Origin: Dickeya dadantii NCPPB 898
GTDB lineage: Bacteria > Pseudomonadota > Gammaproteobacteria > Enterobacterales > Enterobacteriaceae
Reading direction: 5' to 3'
Length of the DNA stretch: 32,000 nucleotides
NCBI RefSeq assembly: GCF_000406145.1
Contig: NZ_CM001976.1
Span: 2,674,379-2,706,378, forward strand
Below are positions 18,028 to 31,086 of the stretch, piece by piece (positions within the stretch are counted from its first letter, which is position 1; each line of letters starts with the position of its first letter). The position numbers and the translations under genes were made by a program. A model generated the notes under the pieces. It saw only the letters and a list, made by a program, of their open reading frames with translations, did not search any database and had not been told where the DNA came from.

Positions 18028-20025
18028 TCAGAATTTCACCCACTCATCTTCGGCGGGATGATGTTTCGCCGACTCTGTCGCCTTGCGGTGAGTATCTTTC
18101 TTCTGCGTCGGTTTCCGGCCGGTTTGGCCCGGCTTATTCAACAGTAATGTCTGATGGCTTGCCGGTGAACTAACATGGTGAGGGTGCGAATCGTCGCCCA
18201 AATGAAACACCGATACCGCCTGCGCCAGTATCCGCGACTGCTCTTCAAGCGAATTGGCCGCCGATGACGACTCTTCCACCAGCGCCGCGTTCTGCTGGGT
18301 CGTGGTGTCCAGCTCCGACACCGCCTGAGCGATCTGGGATATTCCCCGGCTTTGCTCATCCGAAGCCGAGGCGATTTCCCCCATAATGTCAAACACATGG
18401 GCTACCGATTTGACAATATCCTGCATGGTTTTTCCCGCCTCTCCCACCAGCGCTGAACCGGTATCGACCCGCGATACCGATTCATGGATTAACCCCTCGA
18501 TTTCCCGTGCGGCCTGAGCGCTACGCTGGGCCAGATTGCGCACCTCACTGGCGACCACCGCGAATCCGCGCCCTTGCTCGCCGGCTCTCGCGGCCTCAAC
18601 CGCCGCATTCAGCGCCAGAATATTAGTCTGAAAGGCGATACTGTTGATCACCGTCGTAATATCAGAAATGCGTTTGGAGCTGCTGGAAATGTCGTCCATG
18701 GTCTTCACCACGTTATTGACGATTTCACCGCCCTTGACCGCGTTCTGCGACGCTTCCGACGCCAGCTGCGACGCATGGTGGGCGTTTTCGGAGTTCTGTT
18801 TCACCGTCGAGGTCAACTGCTCCATGCTGGCGGCCGTTTCCACCACCGCCGCCGATTGCTGTTCGGTACGGGACGAAAGATCGGTATTACCCGCCGCGAT
18901 TTCCGCCGAGGCGGATTCGACATGCCCCACCCCTTCGCGGATATCCCGGATCATGGTGCGCAGCTTGTCATTCATGTTGCCCATTGCGGTGAGCAACTGC
19001 CCCAGCTCGTCGCGACGCGTCGTACTGACCACAGATGAAAGGTCGCCGCTGGCGATCCGTTCCGCCACCGACAGGCTCAGTTTCAGCGGGACAATCAATT
19101 GCACCGAGATACGCCACGCCATGATGATACCCAGCAGGATCACGGACAGACCGGTCGCCACCATGTTGAATTCCGATGACTGGGTAGTTTGATTGGAATT
19201 AGCCAGTTGTTGATTGAATAGACTGCCGACATCCGTATTCAGTTTTTCCGCCGCCTCACTCATTGCCTGGCTGGCGCGGGTTTCATCCTTAAAAGCGGCC
19301 AGATAGGCCGGCGCAGAACGGCGGTAGCCTGCGAAATAATCCCAGGCGGTATTCAGCCATGCCTGCTGTTCCGCGGATAACCGCCCGGCCTTTTCCTTAA
19401 TGGCCGCTTCGGCGGCATCAATGTTTTTAAGGGTCATTCCCAGCGTATTATCCGAGGGCCCCAGCAGCAGATCATGCGCTACGTCGCGAATATCAGACAT
19501 GTACTCGCCCAATTGGTACAACAGCACCTGAATATCTGACGATACGCCCGCGACCTGCTGCCACTTATTATGGAATGCTTCCAGCACGCTGCCGCTTTCA
19601 TCCTGACCAATAGTCAAACCAGCGGCATCCCGCTTTTTACTGGCGGCGATGAATGCGTCCCGCATGGCCCGATACGTTTTCAGGTCCTGCTCAATGCGGT
19701 TCACATCGTCGATCGTATCCTTATCCCAGCTCAGCGTCTTGGCCTGCCTGAGAATGTCATCCATCTTATTAATCAGCTCGCCATTTTTATCGATAAAGCT
19801 GTAGTCATGCGTGAACTGAAATTGCGTGCGCAGGATTCGAGCCTGCGCCAATGTGGCGTTGAGTTGATTGCTCGCCTGTGCCTTATCGTTATTATCCGCC
19901 ACACTGCGAAATCCAATAACCCCGGCCATCAATACCACCAACGACAATAACAAAACCGAACCAAAGCCTAATGACAGTTTGGTTCCCAGTTTAAGATTTT
20001 CGTATTTTCCACCCAGAATATTCAT
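18028..20025 (-). CDS. Methyl-accepting chemotaxis protein with large helical periplasmic domain
   Basis: The ATG at 20025 (MNILGGKYEN...) is preferred over 20049. Two TM segments flank a ligand-binding region of about 250 aa, followed by a HAMP domain. The cytoplasmic signalling domain is conserved (EQSAAVVETAASMEQLTSTVKQN, FQTNILALNAAVEAARAGEQGRGFAVVA.EVR.LA). The C-terminus ends EWVKF after a long linker. Confidence 0.9.
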   Translation of the reverse strand: MNILGGKYENLKLGTKLSLGFGSVLLLSLVVLMAGVIGFRSVADNNDKAQASNQLNATLAQARILRTQFQFTHDYSFIDKNGELINKMDDILRQAKTLSWDKDTIDDVNRIEQDLKTYRAMRDAFIAASKKRDAAGLTIGQDESGSVLEAFHNKWQQVAGVSSDIQVLLYQLGEYMSDIRDVAHDLLLGPSDNTLGMTLKNIDAAEAAIKEKAGRLSAEQQAWLNTAWDYFAGYRRSAPAYLAAFKDETRASQAMSEAAEKLNTDVGSLFNQQLANSNQTTQSSEFNMVATGLSVILLGIIMAWRISVQLIVPLKLSLSVAERIASGDLSSVVSTTRRDELGQLLTAMGNMNDKLRTMIRDIREGVGHVESASAEIAAGNTDLSSRTEQQSAAVVETAASMEQLTSTVKQNSENAHHASQLASEASQNAVKGGEIVNNVVKTMDDISSSSKRISDITTVINSIAFQTNILALNAAVEAARAGEQGRGFAVVASEVRNLAQRSAQAAREIEGLIHESVSRVDTGSALVGEAGKTMQDIVKSVAHVFDIMGEIASASDEQSRGISQIAQAVSELDTTTQQNAALVEESSSAANSLEEQSRILAQAVSVFHLGDDSHPHHVSSPASHQTLLLNKPGQTGRKPTQKKDTHRKATESAKHHPAEDEWVKF

Positions 20026-20580
20026 AGAATCACCATTTATGGCTCTCATAATGTGAACGTCATTCCATGTATATCAATGACATATCATGATAAATATTAC
20101 ATATCGCTATTTAATAATTGCAAAGGTAATCAACATCCTTTTTTACTGTCATCCTGCCGCCAAAAACCTATTGATGCGTTAAAAAATCTATTGATGCGTA
20201 TAACACTCAATTCAGCAAAAAGTAGAAATAATGAATAGCTGGATGCTTGACACCGTCTCGCACGATTAAAATAACAAATAAATCATGTGATTATGAATAA
20301 ATTGAAACACCATTAAGAATGGTGAGAGAAAAACGATTTACGCTGATTATCAGGATTTTAGTTAACCGTTTTAATCCCTCATAATCTATATATCATCCTT
20401 CCAATAATAGAAAGATATATAATGCAAGGGTATAAGAACCCCCGCTGATCTAGCATGACTGGATATTTCGATGAAAATAAATAGGTCGTTATCAATGGCG
20501 GGAAGACAGAATAAACATCGGGGATAATACGCCGTTGCGAGCAACCTTAATCGCCACGGCTACGCTTTACCTGCGGATGG

Positions 20581-23258: not shown

Positions 23259-25385
23259 ATGACGTCTGACGAAACCGAAAAAAACGCCGACAACCGGGGC
23301 GACCGCTGGGCATACCCGTGGAATGCGCCCCGCCCCGCCATACTGCCCGAATCCAGCGCATTGTCTGCGGACACCTTGCAGCAGGGACAGGCGGTACTGT
23401 ATCTGCTGGCGTTGCTGCCGCGTTTTCTGGCCGGCCATTTCCGCCGTCGCTTCGATTATCTGAAGCAGCATCAGGGGCTGGCCGCCGCGTTCAGCTACCT
23501 GTTATCGGTGGTTCAGCGGCGGCTCTGGCCCCGAATCGACGCCGTCAACGCCCGCTACCGGATGAACACGGCCTTATCTTCACGCTTCATCAGCGAAGCG
23601 GAGCAGTATCACCAGTTGCCGGATATGCCGGACAAGGTGCTGCGCGCGTTCGCCGGCCGCATCGCCGCCCACATGAACGATGCCTACCATGCCCACTGCG
23701 AACGCTACCTGCAGGAATGTCCCGGCGATGCTCAGGCGACGTTATTCAACGATGAAACACAAGCGCGCATCTATGGTCGGTTAGCGACACTGGCGCAAGC
23801 CCTGAACGTGACGCCCGCCCACTGGCATCGCCATCAGAACGGAACGCTCACGCTGGAACAGGCGTGCGCCGGCATTATGCGGCTGGTCAACCCCCGCTGG
23901 TGGGAACGCCAGTTGAAGATTCAGCGAGCCCGCTGGCGCGAGGCATTGTGGATTGCCGGCGGCGAGGTGAGCCGGGCCGCGTCTCCCTTTCTCAGCCGCC
24001 AGGCATTGCAGGATATCCGCTACCGCCGTCTGGCGACGCTGGATTTTCTGAAAAGTCGCGAGCTGGAGAATACCCGCAACGGCGAGCGGGTCGATTTGAT
24101 CGATAAAGTCATGGGCAGTATCGCCAACCCGGAAATTCGCCGAATGGAACTGATGACCATGCTGGCGGGTATTGAGCGTTACGCGACCGCACACCACCAC
24201 ATCGGTATGCTGGTGACATTCACCGCTCCCGGCCACTACCATCCCACCCGTACTCGCGGTCACGAGCGAGTATTGGTCAACACCGGATGGATGCCGGACT
24301 GCCCTTCGCCCAAAATGACCCAGCATTATCTGGTCAAGCTATGGGGAAAAATCCGTACCGCGCTCAAAGACCGTAAACTGCACATCTACGGATTACGGGT
24401 CGTGGAACCCCATCACGACGGCACGCCGCACTGGCACATAATGCTGTATTGCGAACGCGCACAGCGTCAGGCGATCGTCGAGATCCTGCGTCGCTATGCC
24501 CAGCCTGGTGAAAGCGAGCGCACGGTGGCGCATAACCGCCGGTTTGACTGCAAGCACATCAACAAGGGCGGCGCGGCGGCGTACGTCGCCAAATACATCG
24601 CCAAAAATATCGATGGCTATGCGCTCGACGGTGAAGCAGACCACGAAACCGGAAAGCCGCTAAAAGAGATGGCCGCCGCCGCCTCGGCCTGGGCCTCGCT
24701 CTGGCGCATTCCGCAATTCCATTTCATCGGGTTGCCCACGATTGGCGCGTACCGCGAATGCCGTCGAATTCGCAGCCGGTCATTGCAGGACGAACTGGGC
24801 GAACAGGCCGAAGTGGTGAGATTTGCGGCGGATCGCGGCGACTTCGCGGCCTATATCGAAGCGCAGGGCGGCGCGAATGTCGCCAGGCAACGCCAGTCGG
24901 TTCGTGTCGCCAGAGCCGCCAGCGAACGGCTGAACGCCTACGATGAAACTATCGTACGCACCATCGGTATTTTTTCCGCCCAGCGCGGTCGCGAGCGTGT
25001 CTTCACCACCCGGCTGGACGAATGGCAAATCGTGGCCAAACACCACGCCGGCGGCGATGTTGCCAACGGCCGTCGCCCGGCTCTGCCTTGGAGTTCTGTC
25101 AATAACTGTGGGGGCGCGTTTTCGTCCGACGCGCTCCCTTACCCATTTCGCGATATTCCTCGCGTTCCTTCAGCGCGGCTAACCTATTTTCAGCGCGATC
25201 GACTGGCGTCGTTGCGCCCCCGCCTGAGCCAGCAAGGTATTGATATCTCACGCTGGGAACGGGAGGCGTTGGTGCGCGGCGCCAGCGTGAAAATTGACGG
25301 CCAACTGATTGATGAATTTAGGAATAAAGCTATATCCGCCGTTGATGAAAAGCGCATCATGGGCAAACAGGTCCTGCACTTATGA
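23259..25385 (+). CDS. gpA: P2 gpA-family replication initiation endonuclease (rolling-circle HUH nuclease)
   Basis: 708 aa with the HUH motif EPHHDGTPHWHIMLY and the catalytic tyrosine pair AAAYVAKYIAKNIDGYALD, matching P2 gpA as recalled. Confidence 0.92.
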   Translation: MTSDETEKNADNRGDRWAYPWNAPRPAILPESSALSADTLQQGQAVLYLLALLPRFLAGHFRRRFDYLKQHQGLAAAFSYLLSVVQRRLWPRIDAVNARYRMNTALSSRFISEAEQYHQLPDMPDKVLRAFAGRIAAHMNDAYHAHCERYLQECPGDAQATLFNDETQARIYGRLATLAQALNVTPAHWHRHQNGTLTLEQACAGIMRLVNPRWWERQLKIQRARWREALWIAGGEVSRAASPFLSRQALQDIRYRRLATLDFLKSRELENTRNGERVDLIDKVMGSIANPEIRRMELMTMLAGIERYATAHHHIGMLVTFTAPGHYHPTRTRGHERVLVNTGWMPDCPSPKMTQHYLVKLWGKIRTALKDRKLHIYGLRVVEPHHDGTPHWHIMLYCERAQRQAIVEILRRYAQPGESERTVAHNRRFDCKHINKGGAAAYVAKYIAKNIDGYALDGEADHETGKPLKEMAAAASAWASLWRIPQFHFIGLPTIGAYRECRRIRSRSLQDELGEQAEVVRFAADRGDFAAYIEAQGGANVARQRQSVRVARAASERLNAYDETIVRTIGIFSAQRGRERVFTTRLDEWQIVAKHHAGGDVANGRRPALPWSSVNNCGGAFSSDALPYPFRDIPRVPSARLTYFQRDRLASLRPRLSQQGIDISRWEREALVRGASVKIDGQLIDEFRNKAISAVDEKRIMGKQVLHL

Positions 25386-25386
25386 G

Positions 25387-25429
25387 TTGACGAATATTAC
25401 TGAATAAAGTACTGTATATAAATACAGTC
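25387..25429 (+). promoter_or_regulatory. SOS-regulated promoter: TTGACG -35, TACTGT -10 overlapped by a LexA box
   Basis: TACTGTATATAAATACAGTC (25410-25429) has a CTG-N10-CAG core and matches TACTG(TA)5CAGTA at 18 of 20 positions by my count. TTGACG (25387-25392) lies 17 nt upstream of TACTGT. Confidence 0.8.
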
Positions 25430-25448
25430 TCACAATGGAAGAGGTACC

Positions 25449-25670
25449 GTGGAACAGACTGAAAACAGAGAGCTGACCTTGTCAAGGATTCGATTAATTG
25501 CCGATATATCATTGATATCACAATGCAATCCTGAAGAAATGAAAATCGCCATGTCGTTGATCGCCGACTTATCTCACGGCGAACTCCCGGACAGTGATTA
25601 TCAACAGTTTCTGAAAAACAGCAGTGATGGACAGCAGCTTAAAGCATGGTTCGAACAACAAATGTTGTAA
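25449..25670 (+). CDS. Small LexA-controlled ORF, candidate Tum-like antirepressor
   Basis: GAGG (25441-25444) precedes GTG at 25449. The ORF is 73 aa, AT-rich and acidic, with an internal repeat LIADIS / LIADLS. It sits immediately downstream of the SOS box and after gpA, as tum does in phage 186. Confidence 0.5.
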   Translation: MEQTENRELTLSRIRLIADISLISQCNPEEMKIAMSLIADLSHGELPDSDYQQFLKNSSDGQQLKAWFEQQML

Positions 25671-26243
25671 GGGATTTCGATGGATAATAATGACCGACGT
25701 GAAATTCCCTGGCCGATAGCCAGAGGCACGTGCAAATTAATGGATTTTCTCTGTGGCTAACACGCCCGACTAATACGCAGCAAAATTTTTTTCGTATCCA
25801 GACCGTTCAATAAAAAGGTCTGACTGGCCAAAGCCGGTATATACATTTTGGTATAAATTTTAATTCTGACTCAGTGCAAACCTGTTCGTTGGTCATGTTT
25901 TTTCTTTAACACAGCAGTACGGAATTAGGGTATTCCCATGTAAAAACGTCTGGTAGTGATATTACCCCCGGCCTTCCCGGTACCTTTAACGTACAATATC
26001 CCCTGCCAGCAAGGATCGGCAGGGGACATAATAAGCGGGCACCCTAAAAGAACCATAATAAGCCGCGCGAACAATAAACAAGGGACATGCTAACCAGACA
26101 CCCCTGACACCATTTTCCGCCTGTTGTTGTGTCATCCGTCCAACGCCTTTCCCGCATTGCGACCGCTATCGTTCCTCTGGAGGATAAAGGACCCGAGATA
26201 ACCCGTTTTACTCGATCTTTTTATCTGAACTTAAAGGTATCAC

Positions 26244-26447
26244 ATGAAAGTTTACGCCCATCAGGACGACACCCTGGACGCGCTCTGTTACCGCTACTAC
26301 GGCCGCAAGCAAGGCGTGGTGGAAACGGTTATGCTGTCCAACCACGGGCTTGCGGACCTTGGCCCGATTCTGCCGCACGGCACCGCCGTCACCCTGCCCG
26401 ATATGAATACTTCCGGCTCACAGGAAAGCGTCAATATCTGGGAATAA
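26244..26447 (+). CDS. gpX: P2 tail protein X (LysM-like)
   Basis: 67 aa, the same length as P2 gpX. MKVYAHQDDTLDALCYRYYGR...LP resembles gpX as recalled. Confidence 0.88.
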   Translation: MKVYAHQDDTLDALCYRYYGRKQGVVETVMLSNHGLADLGPILPHGTAVTLPDMNTSGSQESVNIWE

Positions 26448-26522
26448 TGCCGGATCATCAGGCTCCATGCTTGCCTTCGGCTGATAACACATGGAGATCG
26501 CCGCCACACCAGGAACCTTATC

Positions 26523-26984
26523 ATGCAAAAACCACAAAGCCTCAAACTTGCACTGACCAGCGCGCTACCCGCGTTGGGCAATGCGTTACAGTTTCGGATC
26601 CAGGAGGGGGAAATCGCCGCGTTGCAAGAGCCGTCCCTGTCGTTTGAATACCGCTATCAGTTGCTGCTGACGTTGACTAATTTCTCTGACAATCCCGACA
26701 CCCTTTTCGTCACCCTGCTGCTCTGGGTGCGTCAGAATCAGCCGGACCTGCTAACGCGTGAAAGTATCCGCAACAAAGGCATCAGTTTTACGATCGACAA
26801 CAACGCGGATAACACCAGCACGCTGTCCGTACGGCTCAACCTGACTGAGCGCAACCGGGTCAATGAACAGAATCAAAGCCTGCAGGTGCATTATGAACCG
26901 GAGCCAACACCGCCCGAACCGGTTAGCCGGCCCACGGCACTGTATATCGCCGGTGAACCGGTCAGTCAGTGGAAAGGGAACTGA
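26523..26984 (+). CDS. gpR: P2 tail completion protein R
   Basis: 153 aa versus 155 aa for P2 gpR. Shared blocks by eye: SLSFE.RY.L, LL.W.R.NQPD, FT...DNN.D.S, LTER, EPPPPEPV.RP..LYI.GE.VS.W. Confidence 0.85.
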   Translation: MQKPQSLKLALTSALPALGNALQFRIQEGEIAALQEPSLSFEYRYQLLLTLTNFSDNPDTLFVTLLLWVRQNQPDLLTRESIRNKGISFTIDNNADNTSTLSVRLNLTERNRVNEQNQSLQVHYEPEPTPPEPVSRPTALYIAGEPVSQWKGN

Positions 26985-27012
26985 CCCCTCTAGATATCAT
27001 TTCCTTCGTGAT

Positions 27013-27037
27013 GGCCGTTGTGAATACGGCCTTTTTT
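27013..27037 (+). terminator. Rho-independent terminator after gpR
   Basis: GGCCGT (27013-27018) pairs with ACGGCC (27026-27031) across a 7-nt loop, followed by TTTTTT (27032-27037). Confidence 0.8.
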
Positions 27038-27312
27038 CCTGAGAAACTATAAGTAATGATTATTTCATGATCTAAAACTTTCATCTTATTTATTTCCATC
27101 CCGTAATTTTCATAATAAACTTTATCTCCGATCTACCTACACGCCTTCTTTATTTTCTTCATCGCAAATTATTTCAGAAATCGTTTTCTACTGTTATCGC
27201 CGGGGATTAATCAGTAATACCCTATTACCTTCTATGCCTCATCAGCGAAAACCTGCTGACGCTATTACCTCATCCACTCTCTTTTGGATTGAATAACTGA
27301 AGGGAAACACCA

Positions 27313-28074
27313 TTGGATAACAGCCGAAGTTTGCCACGTAATATACGAAAGGAATTACTCCATTTTAAACATTTTGGTAACAATGAAGGATTTCTTTATT
27401 ACCCAAAAATCATGGAAGATATTCGCCCTTCTCTGCCTGAAAACGCCATCTCCCATTGCGGCGGCAATGGTGAAAAGTTCAGAAAGTTGCTTACTCTGTT
27501 CGGCGGTCATTTGGGCGACCCGTATAGCCCGACCGCCGTTCCCGGCGCGTCACCGCAGCTCACCAGTATTTTCTCTTCTTACGGATTGCTGACGGCCAGA
27601 GCGGATTCGCCAACGCCGGTGTTTACCCAGCCCGACTTTCTGCTGCTGTATTGCCGGTGTGAAACGTCCGTCTTCAAAATACTGGTTGGCATCGCCAGCC
27701 TTCGTCATGTTATTACGCATATGGACCGGCAAACCCGCATCGAATTATGCCTGCCGCAGTATACGCTGCGCCCCGGCGCCATCAGCCAGGAGCAAACGCC
27801 GTTCAGTCTCCTCAGCGCCGACCGCGACCCCTTTTTGACCTGTACGCCTGACCTGGCGTATCCCCTGACCTCGCCCGCCAGATATGCGTTGCTGAAGTTC
27901 GACCCGCTGCTGAAAAACAGCATGCAATGGCTCAATCTGAAACGGGGCGATCTGCTCATTATCGACAGCCGTCGCAGTACCCACACCTGTGTGCCATTTA
28001 CCCCGTTTTTCCGCCAGGATTCCCCTTACCTGGCGCACATGTTCATCAACAAACCGAACCCGACACAACACTGA
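27313..28074 (+). CDS. Orphan protein in an AT-rich island; C-terminal half resembles TauD/TfdA / clavaminate-synthase-like Fe(II)/2OG oxygenases
   Basis: TTG start behind GGGA; an alternative ATG is at 27412. Motifs QPDFLLLYCRCE (aa 106-117), DPFL, and GDLLIIDSRRSTHTCVPF (aa 212-229) resemble the CAS-like pattern RPDYL.L.C ... GD.L..DN.R..H.R.PF. The GC content is visibly lower than in the flanking tail genes. Confidence 0.6.
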   Translation: MDNSRSLPRNIRKELLHFKHFGNNEGFLYYPKIMEDIRPSLPENAISHCGGNGEKFRKLLTLFGGHLGDPYSPTAVPGASPQLTSIFSSYGLLTARADSPTPVFTQPDFLLLYCRCETSVFKILVGIASLRHVITHMDRQTRIELCLPQYTLRPGAISQEQTPFSLLSADRDPFLTCTPDLAYPLTSPARYALLKFDPLLKNSMQWLNLKRGDLLIIDSRRSTHTCVPFTPFFRQDSPYLAHMFINKPNPTQH

Positions 28075-28221
28075 CGCCTTACACCGGTGCGCCACGCCAC
28101 GGCGTGTTACCGTGATGCCAGGATCGCAATGCAAAGGCCGTGGTGCAAAGATCGGTGGGGCCATCCGCCACACAACCACGGCGAATTGTCTCACTGCGCG
28201 GGAAGACGCATGCTTCCCACC

Positions 28222-28863
28222 ATGAATACATACGAATATCTCTCCGAAATCCAGCGCGCGCTGCGTAACCTGATTCGTATCGGCGTCATCACCGAGGTCG
28301 ATACCCAACAGGCACGCTGCCGCGTGCAGACCGGTGGCATGGTCACCGGATGGCTCCACTGGCTGTCCCGTCGTGCGGGGAGTTCCCGCGAATGGTGGGC
28401 GCCGTCGGTGGGTGAACAGGTGTTATTGCTTGCAATAGGAGGCGAACTCAATACGGCATTTGTCTTACCGGGTATTTACAGCGAACATCATCCGGCCCCA
28501 TCGGCTTCTGCGGATGCCTGCCACATCCGCTTCCCTGATGGCGCGGTGATGGAATACGAGCCGGCCAACGGCGCGCTGACGGTCACCGGTATCAAGAGCG
28601 CGACGGTCGTCGCATCGGAATCGGTGACCGTCACCACGAAAAACGTCACCGTCAACGCCAGCCAACGCATCACGCTGGACACCCCGGAAGTCGTCTGTAC
28701 GCACAAATTAATCACCCAGACTATCGACGTGCAGCAAGGCGGCAGCATTACCGGCAGCGTCACCCACTCGGGGGGAAGCTTCTCCTCCAATGGCGTGGTG
28801 GTGCATACCCATCAGCATAGCGGCGTACAAAATGGCGGCGGCACAACAGGAGGACCTCTATGA
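28222..28863 (+). CDS. gpV: P2 baseplate spike/assembly protein V
   Basis: The sequence from the ATG at 28222 (MNTYEYLSEIQRALRNLIRIGVI...CRVQTGGM..WL.WL..RAG.SR.WWAPSVGEQVL) is colinear with P2 gpV, including C-terminal HTH.H.G..GGTTG.PL. The tracked start at 28087 is an extension. Confidence 0.92.
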   Translation: MNTYEYLSEIQRALRNLIRIGVITEVDTQQARCRVQTGGMVTGWLHWLSRRAGSSREWWAPSVGEQVLLLAIGGELNTAFVLPGIYSEHHPAPSASADACHIRFPDGAVMEYEPANGALTVTGIKSATVVASESVTVTTKNVTVNASQRITLDTPEVVCTHKLITQTIDVQQGGSITGSVTHSGGSFSSNGVVVHTHQHSGVQNGGGTTGGPL

Positions 28864-30768: not shown

Positions 30769-30790
30769 ATGGCTGAATCGCCGCCGGATG

Positions 30791-30810
30791 TTGTCTCCCC
30801 CCGCTAACAA
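30791..30810 (+). promoter_or_regulatory. Candidate P2 Ogr/Delta-type late-promoter activator site (TGT-N12-ACA)
   Basis: TTGT-CTCCCCCCGCTA-ACAA has perfect dyad arms with a 12-nt spacer, centred at about 30800.5. A CATACT -10-like hexamer at 30844-30849 predicts a start near 30856, putting the dyad at about -55 as in P2 late promoters. Confidence 0.4.
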
Positions 30811-31086
30811 CGCCCGCCGGATGCGCCAACAGCGCCGACTTCGCATACTACCTCTACCCAGGCTGTGCCCCGGGTAACGCACTTCACGACCGACGCGGGC
30901 GCGCACCTACCCCGGTGCAGCGCCCATAACCTGATAACGCCTTTGGGCCTGCGCCCGCACCCAGATATCCGGCGACACAGCCTACCCACAGCCGGGCATA
31001 CCGGCTGGTCATCGCCCGTCGGCCAGCCCGGCTTCTCCGATGCCGCTCTGCGGCATCCTCTCCTGTCAACAAAATGAGTAATCTGC

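Follow-up and report, generated by a model that had tools for sequence, protein, structure and literature searches.

A truncated clavaminate-synthase-like gene, probably a non-catalytic cargo gene, in the R–V interval of the Dickeya dadantii P2D1 tailocin cluster

INTRODUCTION

In bacteriophage P2, genes R and S are followed in turn by a terminator, orf30 (261 aa, minus strand, nonessential), the activator site of promoter PV, and gene V, and the position of orf30 is one of three recognised sites for horizontally acquired genes in P2-like phages. The P2D1 "dickeyocin" cluster of Dickeya dadantii, which encodes a domesticated tailocin, has been placed between a methyl-accepting chemotaxis gene and guaD. 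In D. dadantii 3937, the R gene of this cluster (RS12040) ends at position 2739457, the V gene (RS12050) starts at position 2740694, a homologue of P2 Ogr (60% identity) is encoded at the cluster end, and BLASTp searches with P2 S and orf30 find no match anywhere in the genome (Borowicz et al. 2023, Data Sheet 3). The gene that lies between R and V goes undiscussed in the published work. Here, we report an analysis of that gene, a 253-codon open reading frame (ORF253), in a 32,000-nt stretch of DNA from D. dadantii NCPPB 898 (NZ_CM001976.1), hereafter the window, to whose positions all coordinates below refer.

The window is the P2D1 cluster of a strain other than the published strain 3937. 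The gene order (cI, B, orf82, A, X, R, ORF, V, W, J, I, and H, beside a methyl-accepting chemotaxis gene) is the published P2D1 order, and the R-to-V distance is 1237 bp both in 3937 and in the window. Loci of D. solani have the same order, comprising a cI-type repressor gene, B, a DUF2732 gene, a TraR-like gene, A, a 73-aa ORF, X, R, and the ORF, followed by V, W, J, I, a tail-fibre gene, and then phytase-like and transporter genes. Six proteins of P2D1 particles have been identified by mass spectrometry, and the product of ORF253 is not among them. A search of the literature on the locus tags and on clavaminate-synthase-like (CAS-like) genes in prophage tails found nothing relevant.

We propose that ORF253 is probably a lineage-restricted accessory cargo gene that sits in the R/S–V slot of the P2D1 cluster, encodes a catalytically dead CAS-like protein, and has been maintained for a non-catalytic role.

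RESULTS

ORF253 is a remote homologue of CAS-like oxygenases

The initial annotation had likened ORF253 to the CAS-like/TauD family on the basis of short motifs, and database searches bear out the likeness. A Pfam scan gives no match at E ≤ 1, TauD (PF02668) included. The NCBIfam model ClavSyn_CS1 matches residues 4–248 with an E-value of 2.8e-12, at 46.8 bits and thus below the curated threshold (equivalog cut-off of 450). A sequence search of the PDB returns CAS1 as the best match (E = 1.5e-6 for the sequence alone, 6.6e-9 when a family profile is used), followed by CS3, AsnO, and the lysine hydroxylase KDO1. An exhaustive HMMER search against 1.84 billion representatives yields 78 matches: one Dickeya cluster and 77 remote relatives (E = 1e-18 to 1e-3). 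The remote relatives are mostly 300–600 aa in length, most align along the whole query, and Pfam TauD is present in all eight that were checked. It is secure, on sequence evidence, that ORF253 is a true but remote homologue of the CAS-like Fe(II)/2-oxoglutarate (2OG) oxygenases of the TauD superfamily.

Structure prediction points in the same direction. AlphaFold2 run on six Dickeya sequences alone gave a predicted local distance difference test (pLDDT) score of 29.6, and a second model, from a 39-sequence alignment, reached a pLDDT of 76 and a predicted template modelling (pTM) score of 0.78. Foldseek comparison of the latter model with the PDB places KDO1, AsnO, CAS, OrfP, VioC, and NapI on top (E = 3e-14 to 1e-10, template modelling scores of 0.64–0.70). 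ORF253 therefore most likely keeps the jelly-roll, double-stranded beta-helix fold of the CAS-like type, as judged from the model.

The likeness of ORF253 to the CAS-like oxygenases (CAS1/CS3, AsnO, VioC, OrfP, and KDO1) comprises the overall fold, a collinear sequence across residues 4–248, and the shared blocks QPDFLLLxC, DPFL, and GDLLIIDNRRxxH. The motifs quoted in the initial annotation are all present, namely QPDFLLLYCRCE at residues 106–117, DPFL at 172–175, GDLLIIDSRRSTHTCVPF at 212–229, ARADS at 95–99, THMD at 135–138, and AHMF at 241–244. Differences from the described enzymes are equally clear. ORF253 is about 75 residues shorter, owing to the absence of about 45–50 N-terminal residues together with internal deletions; it has no HxD/E motif; its counterpart of the 2OG-binding arginine is proline; two other invariant arginines are replaced by cysteine and histidine; and its gene sits in a tailocin cluster, not in a biosynthetic or metabolic one. 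The genes of the nearest active relatives lie beside amino-acid or peptide transporter genes or a HalD-like gene, in non-phage contexts, which fits the capture of a cellular amino-acid oxygenase gene. No defence family in PADLOC matches ORF253 at E ≤ 1.

Two iron ligands and the cosubstrate anchor are replaced

CAS-like enzymes bind iron through a facial triad, HxD/E...H, of which the distal histidine, H224, is alone present in ORF253. CAS1 residues H279 (the corresponding iron ligand), R281, D292, R293, and R297 map to ORF253 residues H224, C226, S237, P238, and H242, and in all 34 active relatives the corresponding columns read H, R, D, R, and R. In CAS1, R293 anchors the C5 carboxylate of 2OG. 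The anchoring position, 14 residues past the distal histidine, is proline (P238) in all Dickeya orthologues and arginine in every one of the 34 active relatives.

The proximal half of the triad is likewise missing. The HxE motif of the relatives aligns with R96/D98 in a HMMER alignment, with A97/S99 in a MAFFT alignment, and with a gap in a third alignment. The window ORF253 contains no histidine between H66 and H132, and the segment in question is the most variable part of the protein, reading ARADS, SSASS, or SAAGS among orthologues. By alignment, ORF253 lacks two of the three iron ligands as well as the cosubstrate anchor, as the initial annotation had suspected, a loss that predicts that ORF253 is unable to perform canonical Fe/2OG chemistry.

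ORF253 has lost N-terminal residues and probably starts at a TTG codon

Homology to active relatives, as traced by tblastn, starts at nt 27322 (codon 4), which corresponds to residues 45–100 of the relatives, and no remnant of the missing N-terminus is detected by tblastn upstream of the TTG codon at 27313. An in-frame TGA directly precedes this TTG. From these two features of the sequence, the start of homology at codon 4 and the adjacent stop codon, about 45–50 ancestral N-terminal residues are judged to be missing.

RefSeq places the start at the ATG at 27412, giving a 220-aa product (WP_038911323.1, "hypothetical protein [Dickeya dadantii]") to which residues 34–253 of ORF253 are identical. 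The TTG at 27313 is favoured as the probable start because a Shine-Dalgarno-like element, AAGGGA (27300–27305), lies 7 nt upstream; because residues 4–33 align with a conserved N-terminal block of the active enzymes, LPxxxRxxxxxFxxxGNxxGxL; because the ratio of nonsynonymous to synonymous substitution rates (dN/dS) over the first 33 codons is low (0.10–0.27); and because these codons are 91–94% identical in DNA between species, as compared with 53–66% for the least conserved flanking spacer segments.

The initial annotation had noted that the GC content of the ORF is lower than that of the tail genes. This is true of the ORF as a whole (0.531), but is due almost wholly to its first 33 codons (GC 0.32); from codon 34, GC is 0.56 and GC at third codon positions (GC3) is 0.61–0.71, as in neighbouring genes. 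Codons 1–33 (27313–27411) combine a GC3 of 0.27 with the best conserved DNA of the whole R–V interval, and may be under overlapping coding and translation-initiation or regulatory constraints.

ORF253 occupies the position of the P2 orf30 cargo slot

A clean terminator behind gpR, about 275 bp of very AT-rich DNA, the 253-codon ORF, and the start of gpV 147 bp later had all been described in the initial annotation, and each is found. The terminator, with its stem (27013–27031) and T-run, has a free energy of −10.7 kcal/mol (z = −2.1) and is kept in D. solani, D. undicola, and D. oryzae. The AT-rich DNA (27040–27312) has a GC content of 0.348, as compared with a window mean of 0.569; the gap between ORF253 and gpV has a GC content of 0.63. 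The AT-rich spacer is 82–89% identical to that of D. solani and 66–76% identical to that of D. undicola, and cannot be aligned with the D. oryzae spacer past the terminator. We asked whether a 7-bp repeat, ATCGCAA (27161 and 28123), might be the scar of an insertion or deletion, and abandoned the idea since no alignment could be made between the AT-rich DNA and the spacer of D. oryzae. No Rfam family matches the interval 25300–28400.

We compared R–V junctions across related elements, obtaining two loci from a gpR scan of a genome collection and reaching the other species via gpR homologues. ORF253 is present in four Dickeya species and absent from four others. Specifically, R is directly followed by V, with neither gpS nor ORF253, in the otherwise collinear clusters of D. 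oryzae, D. zeae, D. chrysanthemi, and D. lacustris, in which the R–V spacer measures about 310 bp (D. oryzae ZYY5), 327 bp (D. zeae/parazeae Ech586), about 409 bp (D. chrysanthemi), and 187 bp (D. lacustris). No remnant of ORF253 was found in the D. oryzae spacer. Tblastn with P2 gpS returns nothing in the window or at any Dickeya locus, in agreement with the initial annotation, which had seen no gpS-like ORF. As gpS is missing both with and without ORF253, its loss is common to all Dickeya clusters examined and independent of ORF253.

The slot held by ORF253 resembles the P2 orf30 slot in where it lies with respect to R/S, the operon terminator, and the V promoter, and in holding an AT-rich, probably nonessential insert of about 0.8–1.2 kb whose content varies between relatives. 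It differs in that P2 Orf30 is read from the other strand and shows no sequence relationship to ORF253, a dissimilarity that rules out ORF253 as an Orf30 homologue, and in that the Dickeya element has no gpS and is a domesticated tailocin rather than a phage. ORF253 is a cargo (moron) gene of the orf30-hotspot type, with its nonessentiality taken from the tailocins of species that do not have the gene. The genus phylogeny has D. lacustris at its base and unites D. dadantii, D. solani, D. fangzhongdai, and D. undicola in a single clade. The presence of ORF253 would then most simply reflect a gain in this clade after the loss of gpS.

Tailocin activity has been reported for strains of D. zeae, D. 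oryzae, and D. chrysanthemi. Because tailocins are active in species without the ORF, and because the product is not among the six P2D1 particle proteins, we infer that ORF253 is not needed for tailocin assembly and is unlikely to be a tail component.

ORF253 evolves under purifying selection looser than that on tail genes

Close homologues of ORF253 are found only in Dickeya, in D. dadantii, D. solani, D. fangzhongdai, and D. undicola, in keeping with the orphan status that had been ascribed to the gene. Tblastn of ORF253 against 50,697 phage records returns no match, and IMG/VR yields nothing beyond fragments of this Dickeya cluster. ORF253 has an open frame in D. dadantii, D. solani, and D. 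undicola, among which its dN/dS (Nei–Gojobori) is 0.20–0.35; for A, X, R, V, W, and J it is 0.02–0.17, with dS similar to that of ORF253. Between D. dadantii and D. undicola, ORF253 has 53 nonsynonymous differences over 550 sites and 63 synonymous differences over 170 sites. ORF253 has co-diverged with the cluster under purifying selection that is 3–5 times looser than that on the structural genes.

The main rival to a maintained non-catalytic role is plain decay, in which ORF253 would be a functionless relic of a truncated and inactivated oxygenase gene. The loss of the catalytic residues and of the N-terminus is consistent with decay, as are the looser constraint, the split or frameshifted copies in D. 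fangzhongdai and D. solani, the shortened gene calls in several strains, and the absence of ORF253 from half of the Dickeya species examined. We nevertheless regard decay as distinctly the less probable reading, since dN/dS is far under neutrality, the frame is intact across species at a synonymous divergence of about 0.5, the substituted active-site residues are invariant, residues 106–250 are almost unchanged, and codons 1–33 are much better conserved than the least conserved segments of the flanking spacer.

Maintenance for a non-catalytic role is the reading that we favour, and it would entail the following history. A cellular CAS-like Fe(II)/2OG amino-acid oxygenase gene would have been captured into the R/S–V (orf30-type) slot. 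The captured gene would then have lost about 45–50 N-terminal residues, the HxD/E motif, the 2OG arginine (now P238), and two more arginines (now C226 and H242). Its product would survive as a non-catalytic protein under moderate purifying selection, with a presumed ligand-binding or protein-binding role, and the gene would probably form its own transcription unit behind the gpR terminator.

Several observations weigh against this reading. One D. fangzhongdai copy is split into pieces of 180 aa and 60 aa, and one D. solani allele has a frameshifted stretch, as would be expected for a gene with weak or no function. The invariance of C226, P238, H242, H132, H136, and D138 in the Dickeya family may point to a new site and not just to loss. 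In the structure model, the segment expected to hold HxD/E (residues 88–103) has low confidence, and the fold match is partly circular, because active CAS-like enzymes dominate the alignment behind it; the sequence evidence does not depend on that match. The evidence for dispensability comes from strains other than the sequenced ones. Finally, the order of events, with a gain of ORF253 rather than a loss, rests on a species tree taken as background, and the D. oryzae spacer, being unalignable, gives no scar.

A more specific and considerably more speculative version of a maintained role is that the dead oxygenase fold has been recruited as a small-molecule or amino-acid sensor or as a protein-binding factor, or that its transcription unit has taken over part of V-W-J-I expression while the Ogr half-site decayed in the lineage of D. 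dadantii, D. solani, and D. undicola. A recruited ORF253 could modulate the production of the tailocin, self-protection, or the exclusion of phages, and might do so at a new Cys/His site formed by H224, C226, and H242.

A gene inside an experimentally studied cluster can now be described as a truncated, lineage-specific, CAS-like pseudo-oxygenase, and the R–V slot is seen to have stayed variable between Dickeya lineages despite the domestication of the element as a tailocin. If a selected non-catalytic role is real, ORF253 would represent a rare bacterial 2OG-oxygenase pseudo-enzyme on a phage-derived element; if there is no selected role, it would be an ordinary decaying cargo gene.

gpV very probably has its own late promoter, putatively of the Ogr type

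The initial annotation had found no TGT-N12-ACA dyad in front of gpV and had suggested that V-W-J-I may depend on a promoter in the AT-rich island or on read-through. The first point stands to the extent that 28075–28221 contains no exact TGT-N12-ACA; a degenerate Ogr-type dyad, GTGGG-N12-ACAAC, is conserved there, matching the TGT-N12-ACA core at 4 of 6 positions. In Ogr-dependent late promoters of the P2 type, the centre of the dyad is about 55 bp upstream of the transcript start. The approximately 72–75 bp that precede gpV are 89–93% conserved, also in species without the island, whereas the adjoining upstream spacer is 53–72% conserved. The right half-site, ACAAC, is invariant in seven aligned species. 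The left half-site is GTTGT in D. lacustris, giving a perfect dyad; GTGGT in D. zeae, D. oryzae, and D. chrysanthemi (9/10); and GTGGG in D. dadantii, D. solani, and D. undicola. The centre of the window dyad lies 56.5 bp before the V ATG, as compared with about 57 bp for the annotated PV activator site of P2. Dyads with two mismatches number 17 in the window against 10.7 expected by chance; being common by chance, they leave the V site resting on homology and position, not on statistics. On this comparative evidence, gpV very probably has its own late promoter, putatively of the Ogr type, and the suggested dependence on an island promoter or read-through is weakened by a conserved dyad at a P2-like distance.

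Two other candidates for a dyad before gpV were set aside: TGC-N12-GCA (28130–28147), which is not conserved, and GTGG-N9-CCAC, which was replaced by GTGGG-N12-ACAAC after alignment with D. lacustris.

These results bear on the proposal that the island is mainly transcriptional, in that its promoter would drive or boost V-W-J-I where the Ogr site has decayed. A terminator scan found none between ORF253 and gpV, the left half-site is most degenerate exactly in the ORF-bearing species, and no exact dyad precedes gpV, all of which would be expected if transcription from the island contributed to V-W-J-I. Conversely, the dyad and the 75 bp before gpV are far better conserved than the DNA just upstream, the right half-site does not vary, the cluster encodes the Ogr homologue noted above, and species without the island express functional tailocins. 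Moreover, no promoter was detected upstream of ORF253: the AT-rich spacer contains no plus-strand match to the sigma-70 consensus and no Ogr-type dyad. We consider a mainly transcriptional island improbable, while read-through may make some contribution to V-W-J-I, given that no terminator was found and that the half-site is weakest in ORF-bearing lineages.

Within the window, Ogr-type dyads with at most one mismatch occur only before gpX and after gpI. The copy between gpI and the tail-fibre gene (30790–30811) is a perfect GTTGT-N12-ACAAC, and a 9/10 copy (26123–26144) lies 110 bp before gpX. This arrangement points to X-R and the fibre gene each having a late promoter of its own, unlike the single V-to-G operon of P2. 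Just before the gpV start, an inverted repeat, GGGAAG-ACGCATG-CTTCCC (28200–28218), encloses an alternative gpV ATG at 28210; it is kept in six of seven aligned Dickeya species and may affect V translation.

A non-canonical active site and a tail completion role are disfavoured

ORF253 might instead be an active enzyme that catalyses a new reaction at a non-canonical site, formed either by H224 together with H136/D138 of the THMD motif or by a Cys/His pair, C226 and H242. All Dickeya orthologues share H132, H136, D138, C226, H242, and H224 without variation, and active relatives have different residues in the columns of 136 and 226–242. On the other hand, positions 136 and 138 are variable, surface-type positions in the active relatives; the model puts them at a helix boundary after a strand, outside the jelly-roll core; and the 2OG-anchoring arginine is missing. 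To our knowledge, there is no precedent for a CAS-like enzyme without the first histidine. We therefore hold a non-canonical enzyme to be improbable.

The reading of ORF253 as a divergent tail completion protein or structural substitute for gpS, in whose place the initial annotation had put it, draws only on the R–V position and the absence of gpS and is effectively refuted: Phage_tail_S (PF05069), which matches P2 gpS at 5.5e-44, gives no signal with ORF253, the fold is unrelated, the product is not detected in particles, there is no relation to P2 Orf30, and gpS is equally missing from the clusters of the four species without ORF253, as it is from the 3937 genome.

Coordinates and other features of the cluster

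The features of the R–V interval and its flanks are collected in Table 1. The identities of the flanking tail genes are supported by comparison with P2: gpR is 44% identical to P2 gpR across 153 aa and gpV is 66% identical to P2 gpV, with gpW, gpJ, and gpI following gpV.

Table 1. Coordinates of features in and around the R–V interval (window positions)
Feature	Coordinates	Strand	Description
Methyl-accepting chemotaxis gene	18028–20049	−	
gpX	26244–26447		Pfam E = 1.1e-26
gpR	26523–26984	+	Tail completion gene, last of X-R unit; Pfam P2_Phage_GpR E = 5.8e-34
Intrinsic terminator after gpR	27013–27037	+	6-bp GC stem (27013–27031), 7-nt loop, T-run
AT-rich spacer 5′ of ORF253	27038–27312	.	GC 0.35; putative promoter region of ORF253
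ORF253	27313–28074	+	253 codons, TTG start; shortened CAS-like/TauD-fold protein, active site predicted dead
Spacer after ORF253	28075–28154	.	Poorly conserved; 53–72% identity among ORF-bearing species
Putative degenerate Ogr-type late-promoter dyad, GTGGG-N12-ACAAC	28155–28176	+	8/10 versus GTTGT-N12-ACAAC
gpV	28222–28863	+	Spike gene, first of V-W-J-I unit; Pfam Phage_base_V, Phage_spike, Apex

The gpR gene directly follows gpX (26447–26523), and the P2 lysis cassette (Y, K, lysA, and lysB) is absent from the window; holin and endolysin homologues are present elsewhere in the 3937 genome, according to the published table. In several cluster assemblies (D. solani and D. lacustris), the gpA, gpV, or gpJ gene is split, which could be due to errors in sequencing or to genuine decay of the tailocin of the strains concerned.

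A second AT-rich stretch (25386–26243, GC 0.44) lies between gpA and gpX, in the place taken in P2 by tin/old, cos, and the head genes. It contains TACTGTATATAAATACAGT (25412–25427), the only match in the window to CTGT-N8-ACAG, a LexA/SOS-box-like pattern, located 3′ of the gpA stop codon and 5′ of a low-GC ORF of 73 aa (25449–25670). This ORF belongs to PHROG 1993, which has no assigned function in that database, and is kept in all Dickeya clusters. The SOS-box-like site and the 73-aa ORF together resemble the SOS-controlled Tum antirepressor arrangement of phage 186, and, by analogy, such an arrangement could account for the induction of P2D1 by mitomycin C.

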